Shown: in pieces, positions 8,700 through 56,027 of the stretch | How positions within the stretch are numbered: position 1 is the first letter of the stretch | Layout of the letters: every line of letters begins with the position of its first letter | From: an uncultured delta proteobacterium | GTDB lineage: Bacteria; Desulfobacterota; SM23-61 | Direction of reading: 5' to 3' | Length of the DNA stretch: 64,000 nucleotides | NCBI GenBank assembly: GCA_963712535.1 | Contig: CAVQIK010000002.1 | Location: forward strand, 27,250-91,249 | The notes under the pieces: generated by a model | The model's database searches: none | The model's input: the letters and a program-made list of their open reading frames with translations, nothing else | What the model was told of the DNA's origin: nothing | Position numbers and translations under genes: made by a program

Positions 8700-9983
8700 C
8701 TAAATCCCGCTCCGGACGCCCCTCACGGGCGGATGGGAAACGAAGATGAGAATCAGGGCCATCATGTTCGTTACCGCCCCCAGAAGGAAAGCCGGCTGGT
8801 AGCTCCGGCCTAGGTCGTAGATGTAACCCGCCAGGACGGGCCCGATCGCCGAAGCCACTCCGGCGATTGTGAAGATGGCGCCGATAATCGATGCGGCCCG
8901 AAGGCGCCCGAAATAGTCTCCGACGATCGCCGGGAAGATGGCGCTCACCCCCCCGTAGGAAAAGCCGAATACCGCGGCGAAGAGGAAGAGCATCCAGTTC
9001 GTGTCCGTTCCCATGATCCAGAACCAGGAAAAAATCTGCAGGCCAAGATTGATGGCCAGGGCGGGTCTGCGGCCGATCCGGTCGGAAATATAGCCCATGA
9101 TCAGCCGGCCCAGGGTGGAACCCGCGCCGAGCACCCCGAGGGCGACGAAGGCGGACTTCTGACCGAGTCCGATGTCCATGGAAAAGATCACCAGGTGGAC
9201 CAGGGGGACGAAAACGAAGAGCCACGTGGAGAAATAAAGCGCGGTGAGGACCCAGAAGGATCGCGTGTGGATGGCCTCGGCCGCCGACCAGGTGACTTCT
9301 CGAATAGCGGCTGTCGGGGCAAAGGCGCCGGGGGCGGTTCCGGCTTTCTCACGCCGGCCGTCGGGATGGAGACCCATTTTTTCAGGGTATCCGACGAGGA
9401 AGAGGGACATGAAAAATAAGATGACGAATACCGCCAAACCCAAGACGATGCAGGCCTGCCGCCAGCCAAAGGCGGCGATCAGCATGCCGCAAAGGGGAGG
9501 GATGACGATGATTCCCACCCCCAGCCCGGATTGGGCCACCCCAACAGCCAGGCCCCGTTTGGCGATGAACCACTTCACCACTGTGGGGTTGGCGGTGATA
9601 TACGTCGCGCTCATTCCCCAGGAGGCCAGAAGCCCGTACACAACGTAGAGGTGCCACGGGGCTTGAATGACGCTGATGAGGGCGATGCCTCCGCCCAGGA
9701 GGATGCTGCCGAAGATGAGGATGACCCTCGGGCCGAAGCGGTCGGCCCACCTTCCGAGGATGACGCCGAGGACGCTGTACATGAAGTTGTACAGGGAGAA
9801 AGCGCCGGAAATGCTCTGCCGGGTCCAGTGGAATTCTTCCATTAGGGAGGGAAAGAGGACTCCGAAGGAGTACTGCGCCCCGTAAGCCATGGCCAGGTTG
9901 ATAAAAACTACCCCGGTAATAATCCAGCCGTAAAAGATTTTCGTTTGGCTGCTTTCTTCTTTTTCCACGATACGAGGGAACAT
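8700..9983 (-). CDS. MFS transporter (OFA/monocarboxylate-like)
   Basis: Twelve predicted TM segments with MFS motif regions (GRWADRFGPR). Confidence 0.85.
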   Translation of the reverse strand: MFPRIVEKEESSQTKIFYGWIITGVVFINLAMAYGAQYSFGVLFPSLMEEFHWTRQSISGAFSLYNFMYSVLGVILGRWADRFGPRVILIFGSILLGGGIALISVIQAPWHLYVVYGLLASWGMSATYITANPTVVKWFIAKRGLAVGVAQSGLGVGIIVIPPLCGMLIAAFGWRQACIVLGLAVFVILFFMSLFLVGYPEKMGLHPDGRREKAGTAPGAFAPTAAIREVTWSAAEAIHTRSFWVLTALYFSTWLFVFVPLVHLVIFSMDIGLGQKSAFVALGVLGAGSTLGRLIMGYISDRIGRRPALAINLGLQIFSWFWIMGTDTNWMLFLFAAVFGFSYGGVSAIFPAIVGDYFGRLRAASIIGAIFTIAGVASAIGPVLAGYIYDLGRSYQPAFLLGAVTNMMALILIFVSHPPVRGVRSGI

Positions 9984-10211
9984 CGATCGAAATAGATCCG
10001 GAGAAAAACATTTTAGATCGATGCTATATCAAAACCTGCAATTTTGGCAAGAAGAGACTCTGCTCTTAGGCGGGTTCTCCCCCCGCGTCAGCGGCTATGT
10101 CTGGAATCATGTCGCCCTTCCGCCGCCGGCGGGAAAATAAGAACTAGCCGAGGGTGCCTTCCTGCTCCGTGAAATCATCCGTGGGGAGATCAGGCCAGAA
10201 AGGAATTTCGG

Positions 10212-10739
10212 ATGTTAGCAATTTTCGAAAATTCCCCCTACATCGGGCTCTTTCTGCTCCTTATTTTAGGAGGACTGGGCATACCTTTCTTCCCGCAAAA
10301 TGGAACGTTACTGGTGTGCGGAGTCCTTTTGAATACCGGAGTGGTCAAGATCCTCCCGGCTTTATTCGTCGTTTACCTTGGAGTGTTGCTGGGGGATTTC
10401 ATTATCTATCATTTCGGCAAAAAGTACGGCCGCAGGGTCATTACTCACAGATGGTTCCACAGATTTTTGCCCCGGGATAAGCTCCTGACGCTGGAAGAGA
10501 AATTTAAGCAAAAGGGAACGTATGTGGTTGTCCTTGGAAGACATTTGATTGGGGCCAGAGTCCAAGTCCTACTCGTATCAGGCATTCTGAAAATGCCTGT
10601 CCTGAAATTCTTGCTGGCCGATGTCTTAACGATTACCTTCACCATCGTTCTATGGACGGCCATGGGTTATGGAGGAGGTCACAACCTGCGGGATTTCGTA
10701 ATGGACGTAATCAGGAGAATTCCTTTCTTACCGCTTTAA
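10212..10739 (+). CDS. DedA/SNARE-associated (TVP38/TMEM64) family membrane protein
   Basis: DedA core with the typical G-rich loop (LLLILGGLGIPF ... YGRRVI ...). Confidence 0.8.
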   Translation: MLAIFENSPYIGLFLLLILGGLGIPFFPQNGTLLVCGVLLNTGVVKILPALFVVYLGVLLGDFIIYHFGKKYGRRVITHRWFHRFLPRDKLLTLEEKFKQKGTYVVVLGRHLIGARVQVLLVSGILKMPVLKFLLADVLTITFTIVLWTAMGYGGGHNLRDFVMDVIRRIPFLPL

Positions 10740-10961
10740 TCTCACCGGCTAGCTGTCCTTCTTTTCCGTTCCTTTCTTTTTCTGGGTCATCTCGAATTTC
10801 GTTGAAGGAAAATACGGAGGCCGTGGGTAATTGTGCCGGGATTCCAGGGGTTCGGAAGGGCTTCGCGATGATGACAGGAAAATACCGGCCTGCAGAGGCG
10901 GGATTGATGAGGAATAAGGATTGTGTTTTAATGAGATTCAAAGGAGTGAGCAGATCGAGGC

Positions 10962-12692
10962 ATGGACCTTTTCATCATCCATGGCATCGTCGAGGAGCTG
11001 AAGGAAGAGATCGTCGGGGGGTTCATCGCCAAGATTTACCAGATGAACCGCACGGATCTTCTCTTTCGGGTCCGCCGGCAGGGAGAAGAGAAACAGCTTC
11101 TCGTCTCCACCCACCCCGATTTTTACCGCCTTCACCTCACCCAAAAGAAATACGCCAATCCAATGATCCCTCCCCGTTTCTGTACCTATCTGCGCAAACA
11201 CACGGAAGGCGCGAGAATTGCGGAAGTTACCCAGGACCCGTACGAAAGGGTGGTCCGCCTCACATTGCATAAGAAGATGGATGCGGGAGTAGTTCGGAGC
11301 CTGGTTTTGACGGCCGAGCTGATGGGGAAAGGAAGCAACGTCCTTCTCCTTGAAAACGGAAAAATTCTGGACTGTCTCCATTTCCGCAGGGAAGCCGAAG
11401 GGGCGGCCCGACCCGCTGCCCCCGGCCTCATCTATTCCCCTCCACCCGGCACGGGCCGGCTCGCGCCCGGAGAGCTGACCCCTGAAAAAGTGCAGGGCCT
11501 GATCGATGCCTCCGCAGGAGACCTTTGGAAGACTCTGGTGCAAAAGATCTCCGGACTGAACCCGCTCCTGGCGAAAGAGATCGAGTTCACCGCGAGCGGT
11601 AGGGCAGCCGCGGTCCTGGAGGACACCCGAAGGCTCTTCGACCGGTACGAAAGGAGCGATTTCGACCCGCGGGTTTACACGCTCCTGGGGGAGAAGAAAG
11701 TCCTGGCTCCTTTCCCCCTGAACAGCCTGGACCCCGCAATCCCGCAAAACGAGGGACAGGGCTTTTCCTCCATGAATCAGGCGGCCGACTCCTACTATTT
11801 CGAAGTGGCGACCAAGCGGCAGATCTCCGAGCAGAAGCAGGCCATCGAGAGGCGCCTTCGCCAGCTCCTTTCCCGGCTCCAGCGGCGGAGCGAGAACCTG
11901 CTCTTGGACCGGAAAAAACTGGAAGAAGACCTGGAGCTGAAAGCGTATGGAGAGATTCTGACCGCGAACTACCCGCGGCTGAAAAAAGGAATGCGGGAGA
12001 TCGAAGCCCTGGATTTCCGGCAGGACCCCCCAACGCCCGTCGTCGTGCCTCTCGAGGAGTCCCTGGACCCGTCGGGAAACGTCCAGCGGTATTTCCAGAA
12101 GTACAAAAAGGCCAAAAGGGGGCTGGAATTCACTGCGCGGCGGATCGGAGAGACCGAACAGGAGATCTCCTATTTGGAATCGGTCTTGTTCCAGGCGGAA
12201 GAGGCGGAGGATGGCGAGGATCTGCAAGCCGTCCGCGACGAGCTGGAAGAGGGGGGGATCCTCAGCCCCCCGAAACGGCAGAGATCGGCCAGGGAAAAGA
12301 AGGAGACCTCTTTGCCGGTGCGCCGTTTCCGCTCCTCCGAAGGCCTGGAAATTTTCTGCGGGAAACACAACCTGGGAAACGACTATCTTCTCCGAAACCT
12401 GGCTCGGGACAAGGACCTGTGGTTCCACGCGCAGGGCCTGCCCGGTTCCCATGTTCTCCTCAAGAGCGGCAGGGGAACTCCGAAATACGAGTCCATCCTG
12501 GAAGCGGCGGCGATCGCGGCGCATTACAGCCGCGGGCGGGGTTCGACGCGCCTCCCCGTCGATTACACGGAAGTAAAAAATCTGAGGAAGCCGAAAGGGG
12601 CCAAGCCGGGCATGGTGATTTATTACCATCAGAAAACCATCCTGGTCAAACCGGATAAGGAGAATATAGAAAAACTCGAGGAACGCCGATAG
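10962..12692 (+). CDS. rqcH: RqcH/FbpA-like NFACT family protein (ribosome quality control Ala-tailing factor homologue)
   Basis: N-terminal NFACT-N, central coiled-coil, and C-terminal NFACT-R/DUF814 (GLPGSHVLLKSG...PKGAKPGMVIYYHQKTI). Confidence 0.8.
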   Translation: MDLFIIHGIVEELKEEIVGGFIAKIYQMNRTDLLFRVRRQGEEKQLLVSTHPDFYRLHLTQKKYANPMIPPRFCTYLRKHTEGARIAEVTQDPYERVVRLTLHKKMDAGVVRSLVLTAELMGKGSNVLLLENGKILDCLHFRREAEGAARPAAPGLIYSPPPGTGRLAPGELTPEKVQGLIDASAGDLWKTLVQKISGLNPLLAKEIEFTASGRAAAVLEDTRRLFDRYERSDFDPRVYTLLGEKKVLAPFPLNSLDPAIPQNEGQGFSSMNQAADSYYFEVATKRQISEQKQAIERRLRQLLSRLQRRSENLLLDRKKLEEDLELKAYGEILTANYPRLKKGMREIEALDFRQDPPTPVVVPLEESLDPSGNVQRYFQKYKKAKRGLEFTARRIGETEQEISYLESVLFQAEEAEDGEDLQAVRDELEEGGILSPPKRQRSAREKKETSLPVRRFRSSEGLEIFCGKHNLGNDYLLRNLARDKDLWFHAQGLPGSHVLLKSGRGTPKYESILEAAAIAAHYSRGRGSTRLPVDYTEVKNLRKPKGAKPGMVIYYHQKTILVKPDKENIEKLEERR

Positions 12693-13481: not shown

Positions 13482-14804
13482 CTAATCCGCCCACCGGGGC
13501 GGCCACTCCACGACCATATTTCCCGCTGTATCGAACGGGATCTCCTGGGCCCCCGAGACGACCTCCAGGTTCGGGTTGGACTTGGCTTCCTGGAGCATGG
13601 GCTCCGAGGCCCAGAGGTACTCGAGTTCCAGGGTGTTCTTCACCCAGGCGAGCCGCAGGTCCTTAGGGTCGAGGACTCCGGAATTGTCAAACGCCGCCTG
13701 AAGGGCGTCCCGGTCTCTTTCGTAGGAAATCGGGATTCGCCCGCATTCCGGCCCCATACCGGTGATGGAGTTGATCATGGTGGGCACGGGGTCGATCTTT
13801 TTCACAAGCCGGTGCGTGGTGTAGTCGGCGAACCCGATGCCGATGGCATTCCCTTCGGTTTCCGGGGTCAGATCGCGGACGAAGATCCGGGTAATCTTGG
13901 GCTCCTTTAGAGGGGGGCTGCCGATGAAGTACAGCCGCCCGGTGACGTTGGGGTCCATTCCCGCGCCGGTAATGTTTTTTCCGATCTCGTCCACCACGAG
14001 AAGGTCCATCTGCTTGAAGGGAAGGCGGGGCATGATTTCCTTTGCTCTTTTCAAGAGCTCTTTTTCCCCTTCGTAGAAATTCTGCGGCTCCAGGAGGTGA
14101 AGGGAAGCGGTCTGATCGTACTGATTTTCGATAATTCCGACCCCGAAGAAAAAGGGCAGGGCCTTGCGAGTGATGGGGAGGACCTCCCGGAAGATGGCCG
14201 GATATCCGTTTTTGATGGTCAGGCGGTGGGCCATAAGGGCTCCCTGGTGCTTGCCCATCCCGATGACAATCATCTTGCTGATCCCGCTTTCCACTTCATG
14301 GTCGAAATCGGTATGGGGCTTGATCCGGTTGACCACAACGATCTTGTCGGCCTTCTCGCAGATATTCTTGTCCACCAGGACCGGGGTCCCGAAACTGGTT
14401 CTCCCGATCTCCTTCACTTCCATCGAGGAGACGATGGGGGCGCCCACGTATTCTTCCGTGATGCCCAGGTGATGCAACATCTTCACCTGTCCTTCGGCCG
14501 TGGCGCCGCCGTGGGACCCCATGCAGGGGACCAGGAAGGGTTTCGCGCCCAGGGCCTTCAGGCGGGTGGCGATGGTCTTCAGCACCTTGGCTTTGTCGCG
14601 GATCCCGCGGCTGCCGGCAGTGAGGGCGATCCGCTCGCCGGGTTTCACTTTCTGGGAAAGTCCGAACCGGTCGAGCAGCCCGTTCATCTCTTTCTCCACG
14701 TCCGCCAATCGCGGGCTGGCGATCTTCTGGCGGATCTTAAAAACGCGGGGCAGGGGATCCATATGTTTATCTACCTCCTGAAGAATTTTGGCACAGTATA
14801 CCAC
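13482..14804 (-). CDS. LarA-like (DUF2088, nickel-pincer lactate racemase family) protein
   Basis: Pattern match to LarA blocks (LTAGSRGI / CMGSHGGATAEG / GMGKHQGA). Paralogous in motif layout to ORF 42785..44038. Assignment is tentative. Confidence 0.45.
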   Translation of the reverse strand: MVYCAKILQEVDKHMDPLPRVFKIRQKIASPRLADVEKEMNGLLDRFGLSQKVKPGERIALTAGSRGIRDKAKVLKTIATRLKALGAKPFLVPCMGSHGGATAEGQVKMLHHLGITEEYVGAPIVSSMEVKEIGRTSFGTPVLVDKNICEKADKIVVVNRIKPHTDFDHEVESGISKMIVIGMGKHQGALMAHRLTIKNGYPAIFREVLPITRKALPFFFGVGIIENQYDQTASLHLLEPQNFYEGEKELLKRAKEIMPRLPFKQMDLLVVDEIGKNITGAGMDPNVTGRLYFIGSPPLKEPKITRIFVRDLTPETEGNAIGIGFADYTTHRLVKKIDPVPTMINSITGMGPECGRIPISYERDRDALQAAFDNSGVLDPKDLRLAWVKNTLELEYLWASEPMLQEAKSNPNLEVVSGAQEIPFDTAGNMVVEWPPRWAD

Positions 14805-14815
14805 CGAAAAACAAA

Positions 14816-14864
14816 ATGCGGAATGCGGAATAGTTCAAATGCGGAATTCGGAATGCGAAATTCC
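14816..14864. promoter_or_regulatory. tandem TGCGGAA heptamer array in the promoter region of the LarA-like gene
   Basis: aTGCGGAATGCGGAAtagttcaaaTGCGGAATTCGGAATGCGAAAttcc, giving five boxes as two pairs plus one. Confidence 0.3.
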
Positions 14865-14879
14865 CTCCCCCTTGACGGG

Positions 14880-15376
14880 CATAGGCGCTAACTTAACCCC
14901 CCTTTGAAAAAGGGGGGAGGGGGGATTTTCAGTGGGAGCCGAGCTGTGTTGAAGTACTGTGCAAATCTCAAAGCCAAATCCCGCCCATTGCGAAGTAATT
15001 TGACAGAGAGCGAAAGAGCTCTTTGGTCAGGATTGCGGAGTAAACAGGTCCTTGGTGTCCAATTTTATCGTCAGAAACCCATGGGCGAATATATCGTGGA
15101 TTTCTTCGCGCCACGGGCAAAGTGGGTCACAGAAGTTGATGGATCACAGCATGTGGAAGAAAAACAAGCCAAGAAAGATAAAAATCGCGATGACTATTTG
15201 GCCTCTCTTGGGTTCAAAGTCTTGCGATTTACCAGCAGAGAAGTTCTGAAGGAAAGGGAGGATGTGGCGGAGGTTATCTACCGTACTATTAAAGAGAACC
15301 TATCAGCAGAAATCCCCCCTGGCCCCCCTTTGCAAAGGGGGGAATTGAAGAAAAAAATCCTAAGTTAGCGCTTATG
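14880..15376. mobile_element. MITE-like non-autonomous insertion (about 497 bp) with 16-bp terminal inverted repeats and 12-bp target-site duplication, carrying a DUF559 ORF and two REP units
   Basis: Left end is CCCCTTGACGGG|CATAGGCGCTAACTTA at 14868-14895. Right end is TAAGTTAGCGCTTATG|CCCCTTGACGGG at 15361-15388. The TIRs match 15/16 and the 12-bp direct repeat is perfect. Confidence 0.55.
14904..15368 (+). CDS. DUF559 (Vsr-like) endonuclease-domain protein; N- and C-terminal extensions are encoded by REP units
   Basis: Core LRSNLTESERALWSGLRSKQ...FYRQKPMGEYIVDFF...VTEVDGSQH...RDDYLASLGFKVLRFTSREV matches the DUF559 family. The likely true start is GTG/TTG near 14944. Confidence 0.7.
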   Translation: MKKGGGGIFSGSRAVLKYCANLKAKSRPLRSNLTESERALWSGLRSKQVLGVQFYRQKPMGEYIVDFFAPRAKWVTEVDGSQHVEEKQAKKDKNRDDYLASLGFKVLRFTSREVLKEREDVAEVIYRTIKENLSAEIPPGPPLQRGELKKKILS

Positions 15377-15538
15377 CCCCTTGACGGGGGAGGGTGGGAT
15401 GGGAGTGATAAAGGGGATTTTTTCACACCTCTTCTCTCCACCTTCTGCACTTCCCGTTGTGACGGGAGAGGGTAGGGGCAGGGTTACCCCGCCCCTACGA
15501 TTGGGCGGGGAGACCTCACCCCCGGGGGCATTTCCGCA

Positions 15539-16711
15539 TTAGGGAGGGATCAACACTCCTTCCGGCCAGTTCGGGGAAACAAGGACGTTTCCCCTTGCGT
15601 TCACGATAATTCCGTGGGCATTGGCAATTTTGGCAAGCAGGGAGAGCCCTTTCGCCGGCCCCAGGACGAAGACCGCGGTTGCCAAAGCATCCGCGTCCAT
15701 GGCCGATGGGGCCATAACGGTTACGCTCTGGCACTGGCGGGCCGGCTTTCCGGTCACTGGGTTTAATATATGGTGGTATCTCTCCCCCTCTTTCACGAAA
15801 AATTTCTCGTAATCCCCCGAGGTCGCTACGGCTGCGTTCCGGGGCCTGAGCTTGGCTATGAATTCGGATGGCAGGCGGGGATGCTGGATGCCCACGACCC
15901 AGGGCACGCCCGGTTCCTTTTCTCCGTGAGCCTTAAGATCTCCCCCGGCGTTCACCAGGAAATTCTCCACCCCTTTTTTTCCGAGCGCTTGGCAAGCCCT
16001 GTCCACGGCATAGCCTTTGGCAATGGCGCCCAAGTCGATCTCCATTCCGGGCTCATCGAGAAAAACGGAGGAATGGGCGGAATCCACCCGGACTTTCCGG
16101 TAGCCCAACCGTTTCAAGTTCTCCCGCAGGAGAGCTTCATCAGGGGTTTTTCTCTCCCGGAAATTCCAAAGCCGAAAAACGGGCCCAATGGTAATGTCGA
16201 AGGCTCCCCCGGACAGCCGGGAAAAGAAGAGGGCACGTTCGATGACCTCCAGCGTCTCCGGCGAGACCAGGATTTCTTTCTTGCCGGCGTTCCGGCTAAT
16301 CCGGCTGACCTCGCTATCCGACCGGTAATTGCTCATCAGGAAATCGACCCTGTCCACTTCCTGGAAGGCGGCTTCTACGGCGTGTTCCGCCTGTTTTGCT
16401 TCGCCGTGGGACACGGTGATCTCGACCGAGGTTCCCATGACGATTCGAGACTGGCGGAATATTCGATCCTTCTCTGCTTGACCTTGGGATGGAGATGAAA
16501 AGGAGAGGAGGGAAAGAAAAAAAGCGATCAGGAAACAATTACGGATTGCGGGCTGCGGAGTGCGGAATACCCGTTTACCGACTCCCGCTCTCCTCGAGGG
16601 GGGCCGCTCGGGATTCATCGGTTGAGGATCGGAGATTGGGGAATTTGCGGATGGTTGGGTAAAACGGGTTTTCAGTTTCTGGTTCCGAATTCGAAGGATT
16701 AAACACGCCAT
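15539..16711 (-). CDS. apbE: FAD:protein FMN transferase ApbE
   Basis: ApbE family blocks (MGTSVEI, DITIGPV, GAIAKGYAVD, signal peptide). The true start is probably the internal Met near 16618. Confidence 0.85.
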   Translation of the reverse strand: MACLILRIRNQKLKTRFTQPSANSPISDPQPMNPERPPSRRAGVGKRVFRTPQPAIRNCFLIAFFLSLLSFSSPSQGQAEKDRIFRQSRIVMGTSVEITVSHGEAKQAEHAVEAAFQEVDRVDFLMSNYRSDSEVSRISRNAGKKEILVSPETLEVIERALFFSRLSGGAFDITIGPVFRLWNFRERKTPDEALLRENLKRLGYRKVRVDSAHSSVFLDEPGMEIDLGAIAKGYAVDRACQALGKKGVENFLVNAGGDLKAHGEKEPGVPWVVGIQHPRLPSEFIAKLRPRNAAVATSGDYEKFFVKEGERYHHILNPVTGKPARQCQSVTVMAPSAMDADALATAVFVLGPAKGLSLLAKIANAHGIIVNARGNVLVSPNWPEGVLIPP

Positions 16712-21490: not shown

Positions 21491-21732
21491 GTTATGTTAA
21501 CAAAACTCAACAAGTGCAAAAATATTCCTTAGAAGTGCTTCCGCAGTCCCGGTTTCGTTGGGTTAAAAAGCGTTCCAGACATTGTTGTAGGAATTCACCG
21601 CTGGTGACTTTTGGCCCCCCCTTTATTAAAGGGGGGCGGGGGGATTTCTGACCCAGGCTCTCCAAGAAAATCCCCCCTTTCCCCCCTTTTCCAAAGGGGG
21701 GAATTTTTGCATCAATTAGGAAAATTTGCGAT
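21491..21732. repeat. composite repeat copy A (about 120 bp unique segment plus two REP units), ending about 25 bp before the SDR start codon
   Basis: Near-identical to the reverse complement of 55776..56027, for example aaactcaacaagtgcaaaaatattcctt..aagtgcttccgcagtcccggtttc.ttgggt.aaaaagcgttcc followed by two REP units. Confidence 0.6.
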
Positions 21733-23410: not shown

Positions 23411-23488
23411 AAATCCCCCTTGATCCCCCTTTTTAAAAGGGGGAAACAGCATCTCCTCCCTTTGGCAAAGGGAGGTTGGGAGGGATTT
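23411..23488. repeat. degenerate REP/BIME-like palindromic pair upstream of tctC
   Basis: aaatcccccttgatccccctttttaaaagggggaaacagcatctcctccctttggcaaagggaggttgggagggattt. Confidence 0.5.
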
Positions 23489-26728: not shown

Positions 26729-26830
26729 ATAGTGAACGACTTAAATAAGTTGACATGCTGTTGGCCTCCTCTGGTTGACCCGCAAAATCCCCCCTTGCCC
26801 CCCTTTGATAAAGGGGGGGTGGGGGGATTT
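26729..26830. repeat. composite repeat: tatagtgaacgacttaaataagttgac motif plus a REP unit (second copy at 38398..38506)
   Basis: A shared 27-bp motif is followed about 30-40 bp later by a nested palindrome aaaatccccccttgcccccctttgataaagggggggtggggggattt. Confidence 0.55.
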
Positions 26831-27128
26831 ACCGGGATTGCCTAACATGCAATGTCCACTTTCTTTCGTCGGGCACTATAGATGAGCAGATTTTCGGAGG
26901 CAAGAGGTAAAGGCGTTTCGGCGCAAATTTCCATTCAGGAGGAGGAGTATGAAAAGTGCGTGTCGGTTGACCCTGCTCGCGATTCCGGCGATTCTCTTTC
27001 TGAGGGGAGAGGGAGTTTCCGGATGAAAACTGATTAGGTCTTCCATAACCTCCAAAAGATCGGGTTTACCAAGCCGGCGACCGGCGGAAAGCCGGGAGCA
27101 GGCCTTTGAAACAGGAAGGAGAACGAAA

Positions 27129-29325: not shown

Positions 29326-29462
29326 GGATTGACTAAGAGCTTATCCTTAAATAAGCTCCTGGGTTTAATCCCCCTTTGAAAAAGGGGGACATAGGGGGAT
29401 TTGCTTTACATGACTTGGGGAAAATCCCCCCCAACCCCCTTTACAAAGGGGGGGAATATTAT
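29326..29462. repeat. hairpin (GAGCTTATccttaaATAAGCTC) plus REP pair; inverted copy at 37006..37142
   Basis: About 130 bp, near-identical to the reverse complement of 37006..37142. Confidence 0.6.
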
Positions 29463-29670: not shown

Positions 29671-29827
29671 CCTTAGTGGGCATTTCCATAAATATCGTAT
29701 CGTATTTTTTCGCTTAAAAGGGTTCACAGTACGGCAGAGTCAGAGACAAGCAAATGGAGTTCCTTGATACGTCCCTTCCAGAAATCTCCCCCGCCCCCCT
29801 TTATCAAAGGGGGGAAGGGGGAATTTC
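29671..29827. repeat. about 125-bp repeat plus a REP unit; second copy at 41275..41400
   Basis: gtgggcatttccataaatatcgtatcgtattttttcgct.aaa.gggttcacagtacggcagagtc..g.gacaagcaaatggagttccttgatacgtcccttccagaaatc, about 96% identical between the copies. Confidence 0.6.
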
Positions 29828-30374: not shown

Positions 30375-30884
30375 TCAACACCGCAGACTTCGCCGTTTAA
30401 GCCCAAACCTCCTCCAAACGCTCCCATGGCTCTGATAACTTCCCAATCTTTTTCCCCCAATTTCTCTTGCCCGACCGCAAGAGTGGCCTGGTTTCACATG
30501 AATAGCTTCGGCTTCATAATCTCCCGAATCGCTTTTTCCCGCATTTCCTCCAATGTCATGCCGTTTCTCCCCAAAATGGCGGTCATTAAACCCGGGATAA
30601 CTCTCCCGGGATAGTTCTAAGACTCTTTCCTTCACCTCCGGAGGGATACGGTTTCCTGGGCTTCGCCCGGTGTTCCCATGGAACAGTCCCTTGGCTCCTT
30701 TCTTCTGGACTTTCTTGTTGATCTGCTTGGCGTGCCGGTAGGATACGCCGATCATCTCGGCCGCTTCCCTCAAGGTGAGTTTTCCCGCTTCCACCAACTT
30801 CAACGCATGATACCGTTGTAGTTGCCTTTGACTCATAAATATTTTGTCCCCTTCCAAGGGGACATGTCCCCTTGGGTAACACAT
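30375..30884 (-). mobile_element. IS transposase N-terminal (HTH) fragment, ISNCY/IS1202- or IS481-like; DDE domain absent
   Basis: QLQRYHALKLVEAGKLTLREAAEMIGVSYRHAKQINKKVQKKGAKGLFHGNTGRSPGNRIPPEVKERVLELSRESYPGFNDRHFGEK matches the HTH N-terminus of these transposases. The downstream sequence degenerates. Confidence 0.45.
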
Positions 30885-37005: not shown

Positions 37006-37142
37006 CAAATAATATTCCCCCCTTTGCAAAGGGGGGTTGGGGGGATTTTCCCTAAGTTATCCAAAGCAAATCCCCCTTTGTCCCCCTTTTTCAAAGGGGG
37101 ATTTAAACCAAGAGCTTATTTAAGGATAAGCCCCTTGTCTAT
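37006..37142. repeat. REP pair plus hairpin (inverted copy of 29326..29462) in the livK-livH intergenic region
   Basis: See 29326..29462. Lies inside the liv operon. Confidence 0.6.
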
Positions 37143-38397: not shown

Positions 38398-38506
38398 TAT
38401 AGTGAACGACTTAAATAAGGTGACGTCAGATGAGCTCTCATAAGATTTAGTTCCCGTGCCAAATCCCCCCTGCCCCCCTTTTACAAAGGGGGGTTGGGGG
38501 GGATTT
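38398..38506. repeat. composite repeat (27-bp motif plus REP), partner of 26729..26830
   Basis: tatagtgaacgacttaaataaggtgac ... aaatcccccctgcccccctttacaaaggggggttgggggggattt. Confidence 0.55.
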
Positions 38507-40951: not shown

Positions 40952-41150
40952 ATTTGCTCCTTTCTCCCCCTCACCCTCCCCTCTCCCCCGGAAGCGGGGG
41001 AGAGGGTAATTGAAAGGGTCCTTTGAACCTTTAAACCCGATGTCGATCAGGCAGCGGGCTCATTACTAATCGCCGGCCCACGTACCGGCGACCCGGCGGC
41101 TCGTCCTACTCTCTTCCAGTGGGAAAAGGCGGGGGCGGAAAGCGACAAAT

Positions 41151-41400: not shown

Positions 41401-41606
41401 TACTACTGTCACGTAAGCTTATTGCATCTTCGGCAAACCCCCTCACCCTCGCCCTCTCCCCCGTTGCTGGGGGAGAGGGCTGGGGTGAGGGGCAAAGGCC
41501 GACCAAAGGTGAGATCCAGCAACATTCTGCGGATGCCCTTCCCGGCCAATAGAAACAAGGCTCCGCCATACGATTGCTGATGTTTTTTTGCACCTGATGG
41601 GTTAAG

Positions 41607-44144: not shown

Positions 44145-44191
44145 AAATCCCCCCCAACCCCCCTTTGATAAAGGGGGGCAAGGGGGGATTT
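44145..44191. repeat. REP/BIME-like nested palindrome
   Basis: aaatcccccccaacccccctttgataaaggggggcaaggggggattt. Confidence 0.6.
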
Positions 44192-55775: not shown

Positions 55776-56027
55776 AACAAATAAATTTACCTAAATGATG
55801 CAAAAATTCCCCCCTTTAGAAAAGGGGGGAAAGGGGGGATTTTCTTGGAGAGCCTGGGTCAGAAATCCCCCCCGCCCCCATTTAATAAAGGGGGGGCCAA
55901 ATGTCACCAGCGGTGAATTCCTGCAAGAATTTCGGAACGCTTTTTGACCCAATGAAACCGGGACTGCGGAAGCACTTGCAAGGAATATTTTTGCACTTGT
56001 TGAGTTTACATACAAACGCAGGGTGCG
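55776..56027. repeat. composite repeat copy B (inverted relative to 21491..21732), ending about 35 bp before the HIBADH-like start codon
   Basis: The reverse complement is near-identical to 21491..21732, including both REP units (55803..55844 and 55863..55897). Confidence 0.6.

Follow-up and report, generated by a model that had tools for sequence, protein, structure and literature searches.

Architecture of the element

The stretch of DNA analysed here, 64,000 nucleotides from an uncultured delta proteobacterium (hereafter the window), contains at 14880–15376 a 497-bp element with one real gene, which encodes a protein of the DUF559 family. On one side it is flanked by the 3′ end of an ApbE gene (15539–16711, minus strand) and on the other by the start and promoter region of a LarA-like gene (13482–14762, minus strand); the parts of the element are listed in Table 1. 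It is enclosed by the 12-bp direct repeat CCCCTTGACGGG, which has no third copy in the window even when one mismatch is allowed, and directly inside this repeat are terminal inverted repeats (TIRs), of which the left 16-mer CATAGGCGCTAACTTA (14880–14895) returns as its reverse complement with one mismatch at 15361–15376; no further match to the 16-mer with up to three mismatches is present in the window, where 0.12 matches are expected by chance. An earlier, sequence-only reading had described a perfect 12-bp repeat and TIRs agreeing in 15 of 16 positions, and both are confirmed; the TIRs can be extended to 17 bp, over which they agree with each other in 15 positions. The same reading placed two hairpin units and a DUF559 open reading frame (ORF) in a segment of about 497 bp, which is also correct, with two G/C hairpin units bracketing the gene. 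When the flanks are joined, the empty site CCCTCCCCCTTGACGGGGGAGGG is obtained, with a perfect 9-bp stem and a 5-nt loop (−10.5 kcal/mol as DNA, z = −3.6), and the insertion point is the apical loop of the GC-rich palindrome CCCTCCCCC-TTGAC-GGGGGAGGG. The reconstructed site is palindromic, as had been proposed, while its left flank is CCCTC (5 nt) and not CCCTCC. A scan for promoters and terminators gave nothing informative.

Table 1. Parts of the element and target-type palindromes in the window (TSD, target-site duplication).
Feature	Position	Strand	Details
Target hairpin, left half	14863–14879		CCCTC, then TSD copy 1 CCCCTTGACGGG (14868–14879)
Left TIR, CATAGGCGCTAACTTAA	14880–14896	+	16/17 to IS186 end CATAAGCGCTAACTTAA
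Left inner repeat of the DUF559 module	14897–14928	+	Hairpin CCCCCCTTTGAAAAAGGGGGG (14897–14917), A, arm GGGGGGATTT (14919–14928)
DUF559 (Vsr-like PD-(D/E)XK) gene, 140 aa	14946–15368	+	GTG 14946; TAG 15366–15368 within the right TIR
Right inner repeat	15310–15342	+	Arm AAATCCCCCC (15310–15319), TGG, hairpin CCCCCCTTTGCAAAGGGGGG (15323–15342); translated as EIPPGPPLQRG
Right TIR, read on the minus strand as CATAAGCGCTAACTTAG	15360–15376	-	16/17 to IS186 end
Target hairpin, right half	15377–15394		TSD copy 2 CCCCTTGACGGG (15377–15388) and GGAGGG
Uninterrupted target-type palindrome CCCTCTCCCCC-GGAAGC-GGGGGAGAGGG	40979–41006		Paralogous 'empty' site, outside the element
Uninterrupted target-type palindrome CCCTCTCCCCC-GTTGCT-GGGGGAGAGGG, outer arms CCCCTCACCCT / GGGGTGAGGGG	41439–41493		Outside the element

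The limits of the gene differ from those first proposed. Its first 9 codons had been assigned to the left repeat, described as a repetitive extragenic palindromic (REP) unit, which was found to be an artefact of the mechanical longest ORF, beginning at TTG 14904; homologues start at about GTG 14946, with 24 of 25 aligned homologues beginning at that position or one residue later, and a GGGAG is read in the sequence 7 nt upstream of this GTG. Since the real start is GTG 14946, the left repeat is located upstream of the gene and is untranslated. The corresponding proposal for the 3′ end is correct for about 12 codons (EIPPGPPLQRGE), which lie in the right hairpin unit, while the last codons and the stop codon lie in the right TIR. 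The product matches PF04480 with E = 1.4e-34 and 118.6 bits, against a cut-off of 20.6 bits; its core motif IVDF...EVDGSQH is intact, and D66, E77, D79, and H83 are invariant or nearly so in alignment A1. The nearest solved structure is 3HRL (E = 5e-25), a DUF559 protein annotated as 'endonuclease-like protein', and NCBIfam assigns only 'DUF559 domain-containing protein', below the equivalog threshold. VSR, DUF559, and DUF2726 are treated as one PD-(D/E)XK clade in Table 1 of PMC3424549. The DUF559 family is very large, with 22,604 clusters at 50% identity matching at E ≤ 0.001. A defence-system reading from PADLOC was set aside, as weak partial matches (DpdF, methyl-directed REase) were all that was found and were not taken as evidence.

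Ends, copies and target sites

Over all 17 bases, the consensus of the ends of this element family agrees with the termini of IS186, an insertion sequence (IS) of the IS4 family. When viral contigs were scanned with CATANGCGCTAACTTAA, many elements of 1338/1339 bp were found that have exactly this sequence at both ends, in inverted orientation, and encode a protein of about 370 aa, which is named 'IS4-like element IS186B family transposase' in RefSeq and occurs in 2221 of 5426 complete genomes of E. coli. As read from the E. coli element sequences themselves, IS186 copies have 10-bp duplications inside GGGG-N6-CCCC. A metagenome scan with the 17-mer gave autonomous elements of 1.3–1.4 kb (L201, L220, L226, L237, and L238; L and P numbers denote compared loci or contigs and proteins, respectively), while the autonomous L316 came from a separate look-up of the transposase relative P0270. 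These environmental transposases have a DDE_Tnp_1 domain and an invariant Y-2-R-3-E-6-K motif and are 30–34% identical to the E. coli IS186 transposase, and more than 7400 transposase relatives are present in the protein collection; clean 11-bp duplications are seen in L201 (GGGCTGCGCCC) and L316 (GGGCAAAGCCC). The same scan gave many gene-less miniature inverted-repeat transposable elements (MITEs) of 124–346 bp with the same ends and 11-bp duplications, including L176, L180, L184, L216, L219, L223, and L244. According to PMC2266710, about 10 bp of the target are duplicated by members of the IS4 family; the duplications found here, namely 12 bp in the window, 11 bp in L003, L080, L081, L306, and L307, and 10 bp in E. 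coli IS186, fall within the family range of about 10–13 bp.

Further copies with the same TIRs, the search for which had been recommended by the sequence-only reading, were found at unrelated sites. A copy with a 97.6% identical element lies in an M20 peptidase/iron alcohol dehydrogenase context on a 328-kb contig (L080, duplication CCCCTTGCGGG); others lie in an unrelated context in a candidate division NC10 genome (L003, CCCTGGATGGG), in an HpcH/amidase context (L306/L309, CCCGCGAGGGG), in two different contexts (L307 and L313, CCCCTCGAGGG), and in L081 (CCCGTCGAGGG), where the right hairpin was later split by another element. Copies with their own duplication at multiple sites comprise those of the window, L080, L081, L003, and L306–L315. 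The two duplicates agree in 12 of 12 positions in the window copy and in 11 of 11 in L003, L080, L081, L306, and L307, and the loop bases vary between copies; duplications that differ between copies and match within them are a signature of transposition and not of a repeat motif. The suspected transposition footprint is thus supported by these duplications next to the same TIRs, by ends of the IS186/IS4-family type, and by autonomous relatives and MITEs that share these ends. In addition, an identical 139-aa DUF559 protein (P0038) was found in several gene contexts, among 10 places listed, within 500-bp cassettes whose IS186-type ends are exact in nearly all copies, which is apparently the result of recent activity. 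No cassette match was found in the plasmid collection, and the phage collection gave only three distant DUF559 matches.

All reconstructed targets are hairpins that follow the pattern CCCTC(C/T)CCC-N5-GGG(G/A)GAGGG, often with TTAGGGTGG next to it on the right. The search for the uninterrupted target site was partly successful, as intact target-type hairpins were found in the window (Table 1) and in L080 at 9862–9885, although the exact empty allele did not turn up. The window and related contigs contain further members of the repeat family to which the target palindrome belongs (CCCTC.CCC-N5-GGG.GAGGG, frequently accompanied by TTAGGGTGAGGG), and for this reason the right flanks of all copies are superficially alike. 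Such recurrence would be expected if nothing had been inserted and the repeats were a local array of REP units or bacterial interspersed mosaic elements (BIMEs), in which a recurrent motif is mistaken for a duplication; this is very improbable, since the loop bases match within copies and differ between them, the window has just two copies of the 12-mer, the 497 bp are entirely absent from relatives, and the ends match those of a known IS. The caution that the 12-mer might be a general motif, with no other copies or empty sites, is likewise not borne out. Another explanation starts from the fact that only the 17 terminal bases are common to the cassette and the autonomous elements, from which it could be supposed that an IS186-like IS decayed and its transposase was replaced in situ by DUF559, without ever moving as a cassette. 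This is the least credible of the explanations considered, because cassettes of about 500 bp that agree in cargo and ends occur at many loci, in several phyla, next to fresh duplications; therefore, it is the cassette as such that transposes.

The same insertion with the same duplication is present in two contigs of the same species, L296 and L297, the DUF559 gene being frameshifted in L296. In relatives with a 91% identical LarA, the spacer between ApbE and LarA is 190 bp long and has no trace of the element, so the insertion is lineage-specific; in an 89% relative (L300/L301), an uninterrupted, diverged hairpin lies beside a conserved promoter-proximal segment, AATTTCGCATTCCGAA. This segment is part of an array of reiterated GGAATGCG / GGAATTCG motifs (aatgcggaatgcggaat...aatgcggaattcggaatgcgaaattcc) at 14806–14862, directly upstream of the LarA-like gene, which may be an operator array; AATTTCGCATTCCGAA itself is conserved in L300, and another reiterated motif (AAATCCAAATCT...) is found in the 91% relatives. 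The element differs from that of L297 at 9 of 497 positions (1.8%), against 0.8% in the surrounding 7.7 kb, and this excess could be due to gene conversion between cassette copies or to relaxed constraint. The Lar_N gene of L080 was ruled out as an orthologue of the LarA-like gene, being a paralogue with 44% identity, and exact-sequence look-ups of the window LarA-like protein and of P0121 gave no match. Meanwhile, L318, from a relative of the window organism, has a fixed DUF559 copy with an intact ORF at 1420–1930, between enolase and pta; the left end of this copy (P0078) is decayed (CATAAGCGTTAGCTCAA) and its right end is deleted. It is evidently an immobilised cassette, kept at one locus in 13 contigs. 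P0078 was also considered as a mobile unit lacking IS186-type ends and was rejected, given its one fixed locus and its decayed or deleted ends.

It is concluded that 14880–15376 is, with a probability of roughly 0.88, a mobile insertion cassette, a transposable element of the IS186 lineage (IS4 family) that is non-autonomous. The element is classed as non-autonomous because it has no DDE/YREK transposase of its own, DUF559 being its sole ORF. A DDE/YREK transposase supplied from elsewhere, by the genome or by a past co-resident element, would bind the 17-bp ends, excise the cassette, and insert it; by analogy with Tn5 and Tn10, excision may proceed via hairpin intermediates, and the duplication would arise through gap repair of cuts that are staggered by 11–12 bp with the hairpin loop at their centre. 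Mobilisation in trans can only be inferred, from the autonomous elements with the same ends, because no such transposase lies in the window.

Several observations weigh against this conclusion. The exact empty allele was not found among the LarA relatives, L296 and L297 being occupied and L298–L305 being too diverged or without ApbE. A tblastn search with the IS186 transposase in the window and in the flanks of L001–L081 gave noise only and no IS186-like transposase that could be the trans-acting partner. The autonomous relatives with a clean duplication insert into GGG-N5-CCC (L201 and L316), whereas the DUF559 cassettes and some MITEs (L219, L244, and L176) insert into the loops of CCC-N5-GGG hairpins; these two target polarities suggest a further, unseen transposase subtype in the IS186 lineage. 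The duplication here is, at 12 bp, longer than in most relatives (11 bp) and in E. coli IS186 (10 bp), and the flanks of the metagenomic copies L308, L311, and L312 do not match; these copies could be recombinants between copies or assembly chimeras.

A transposase-like fragment in the window (30375–30884, minus strand) was considered as the partner and ruled out. Its 169-aa ORF has only the helix-turn-helix domains HTH_29, HTH_23, and HTH_28, which is consistent with a truncated transposase N-terminus, and it is unrelated to IS4/IS186.

The DUF559 gene and its hairpin repeats

The DUF559 gene has its own hairpin inverted repeats of about 34 bp upstream and downstream, each composed of a hairpin, a spacer, and an arm (Table 1). 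A genome scan gave 349 relatives in bacteria of many phyla and in one archaeon. Of 83 units of this DUF559 subfamily examined with the strict pattern C6T3..A3G6-sp-G6ATTT ... AAATC6-sp'-C6T3..A3G6, 65 have the left repeat and 61 the right one, each at a short, fixed distance from the gene; whether DUF559 ORFs are generally bracketed by such repeats was a question that the sequence-only reading had raised. Exact complementarity between the two spacers is seen in 12 of 50 units, compared with 3.8 expected and a maximum of 11 in 1000 shuffles, but it is far from universal and is absent from the window copy (A and TGG). A neighbour-joining tree places all 17 units with IS186-type ends in a single clade of 42 leaves, and the other 35 leaves, which are basal, carry the hairpin repeats without such ends. 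The module of DUF559 and repeats thus predates the IS186-type shell, between whose ends it was packaged in one lineage, and it has a much wider distribution than this shell; in some copies, such as that of L318, the ends were lost again later.

The hairpin is also common outside the element, with 12 of 14 matches in the window lying elsewhere, and its density at loci with a DUF559 gene is about 13 times that at control metagenome loci. The window has such repeats (C6T3..A3G6, in many cases flanked by AAATC6 / G6ATTT arms) at 21615–21700, 23425–23443, 26770–26840, 29370–29455, 29794–29815, 37017–37100, 38473–38495, 44158–44180, and 55809–55880. Among them are full singlets (AAATC6-sp-hairpin-sp-G6ATTT), one of which was folded (−25 kcal/mol, z = −5.5), and four gene-less doublets, in which the arms are arranged as in the DUF559 flanks with about 25 bp between them and the centres have unique bases in common with the gene-bearing unit. 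The doublets at 21615 and 55809 are near-identical and in opposite orientation. A small palindrome, AAGAGCTTATCCTTAAATAAGCTC, adjoins both type-B doublets in opposite orientations (29336–29362 and 37105–37130), and these doublets may be part of a longer composite repeat. Translated-hairpin tails (e.g., IPPNPPFSKGG) are present in 44 of 149 distant DUF559 cluster representatives.

The right hairpin is interrupted in L081, where an IS5/IS1182-like element (DUF772, DDE_Tnp_1, and DDE_Tnp_1_6) at about 9735–11750 lies within the right hairpin repeat of the cassette. Identically altered tails are found in the proteins P0003 and P0005; therefore, the right hairpin is itself a recurrent insertion target.

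The association is found in E. coli K-12 as well. In ycjD (L317, NC_000913.3, 1351040–1351830), the DUF559 gene ends within a CCCTCTCCC...GAGGGGG palindrome; a boxC-like GGGGAGAGGGTTAGGGTGAGGGG repeat follows about 180 bp downstream, with a duplicate of about 45 bp of the 3′ end of the gene in between, and a perfect 17-bp inverted repeat reaches from just upstream into the start codon. The link between DUF559 and GC-rich palindromes is not confined to the window subfamily. It has been reported that DUF559 proteins are 14-fold enriched among predicted targets of programmed inversion (PMC9881135), to which the flanking inverted repeats might contribute. No description of a link between DUF559 and hairpin repeats or cassettes was found in a literature search.

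Selection on the gene differs with the time scale. The ratio of non-synonymous to synonymous substitution rates (dN/dS) of the DUF559 core is 0.08–0.26 between diverged cassettes and 0.5–1.4, on a handful of changes, between near-identical copies, and broken copies occur in L296 and L081. Long-term purifying selection combined with the decay of single copies is typical of genes of selfish elements, and the function of the cargo therefore matters over time.

It could be proposed from these data that the DUF559 nuclease itself spreads the cassette or its inner module, by cutting hairpins or cruciforms in the manner of a homing endonuclease or of a REP-associated enzyme comparable to the REP-associated tyrosine transposases (RAYTs), and that the IS186-type ends are a later addition. 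The frequency of both repeats at DUF559 genes of many phyla, the excess of complementary spacers, the basal units without IS186-type ends, the unique bases shared by the gene-less doublets, the density of the motif at DUF559 loci, the translated tails such as PPFSKGG in distant representatives, and the purifying selection even in a multicopy cassette would all fit this proposal. However, a DDE transposase fully accounts for the 17-bp IS186-type ends and the 11–12-bp duplication; duplications of this sort are not a known product of PD-(D/E)XK nucleases, and DUF559 proteins have no known activity, 3HRL being the only relative with a solved structure. Moreover, several units without IS186-type ends occupy conserved syntenic positions, as P0078 does at one locus in 13 contigs and as do L055, L056, L065, L070, and L073, which share the same downstream gene; this argues against frequent movement, and the repeats could merely have accumulated around a dispensable gene. 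Spread by the nuclease itself is thus considered unlikely. The latter five units (Rhodocyclaceae/Competibacteraceae) lie directly upstream of a gene starting MSEPIEFYFDFSSPY, which suggests vertical inheritance of single resident copies, as for RAYTs. A related and similarly tentative idea is that DUF559 is more than a passenger and recognises the hairpin repeats around its gene, and perhaps the boxC-like target palindromes of the cassette as well, and that it maintains or spreads these repeats. DUF559 and its repeats would then be a PD-(D/E)XK counterpart of RAYTs and their REP doublets, and this module would later have been packaged between IS186-type ends in one lineage.

Relation to known mobile elements

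The preferred reading, a cassette moved by its IS186-type ends, can be compared with several known systems. IS186 itself (IS186A/B and IS421 of E. coli) has the same 17-bp ends as the cassette consensus, and long duplications and GC-rich symmetric targets are common to both; in contrast, IS186 is 1338–1339 bp long and has its own DDE transposase of about 370 aa, while the window element has 497 bp and none, and its target (CCC-N5-GGG, with a C-rich 5′ hairpin arm) has the opposite polarity to GGGG-N6-CCCC of IS186, the host here being an uncultured bacterium, probably of the Thermodesulfobacteriota.

The sequence-only reading had named the element MITE-like. As in MITEs, it is short, has TIRs and a real target duplication, and lacks a transposase, but MITEs have no coding capacity, whereas this element carries an intact 140-aa DUF559 ORF under purifying selection; because an intact gene is carried, the term mobile insertion cassette is preferred. 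In mobile insertion cassettes, IS-type inverted repeats bracket a gene that is not a transposase, as in MIC231A1 according to PMC3913671, and in the window such repeats surround a non-transposase gene, with a target duplication and no transposase nearby. MIC231, derived from IS231 in the Bacillus cereus group, and the 'mic' elements of qnrD/qnrS2 likewise have IS4-family ends around a passenger gene and a target duplication. MIC231 is mobilised in trans, which for the window cassette is presumed, and the latter differs in its IS186-type ends, its DUF559 passenger with inverted repeats of its own, its multiple copies in several phyla, and its hairpin-loop targets.

The inner module alone resembles the system of RAYTs and their REP doublets forming hairpins (REPINs), also called REPtrons, in having a single small gene, two inverted palindromic units, dispersed gene-less doublets and singlets, and some copies that look vertically inherited. 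The gene of that system is an HUH/Y1 transposase, whereas here it is a PD-(D/E)XK DUF559 gene and no Y1_Tnp is present, so the likeness is an analogy only and the module is not a REPtron; the inner repeats also lack the GTAG/CGTC head that PMC3733652 gives as typical of RAYT-associated REPs. Vsr and the Vsr-like homing endonuclease I-Bth0305I belong to the same fold clade, but the window gene has no adjacent cytosine methyltransferase and no intron or intein context, and with its terminal repeats and duplication the element is not a homing endonuclease gene.

IS186 is usually regarded as an enterobacterial element. The present results make it part of a large environmental lineage in which the 17-bp ends are conserved and which includes numerous MITEs as well as a cassette that carries a gene; no paper linking IS186 with MITEs was found in a literature search. 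In the cases found here, the targets of the cassette and MITEs of this lineage are loops of GC-rich palindromes between genes. An unexplained footprint thus becomes an annotatable IS186-lineage cassette, for which the kind of enzyme that moves it is named. The tight link between DUF559 and hairpin repeats across phyla would, if functional, explain widespread intergenic repeats and a large orphan nuclease family, and a DUF559 protein acting on repeats would, if the tentative idea above is true, give a function to a very large family.

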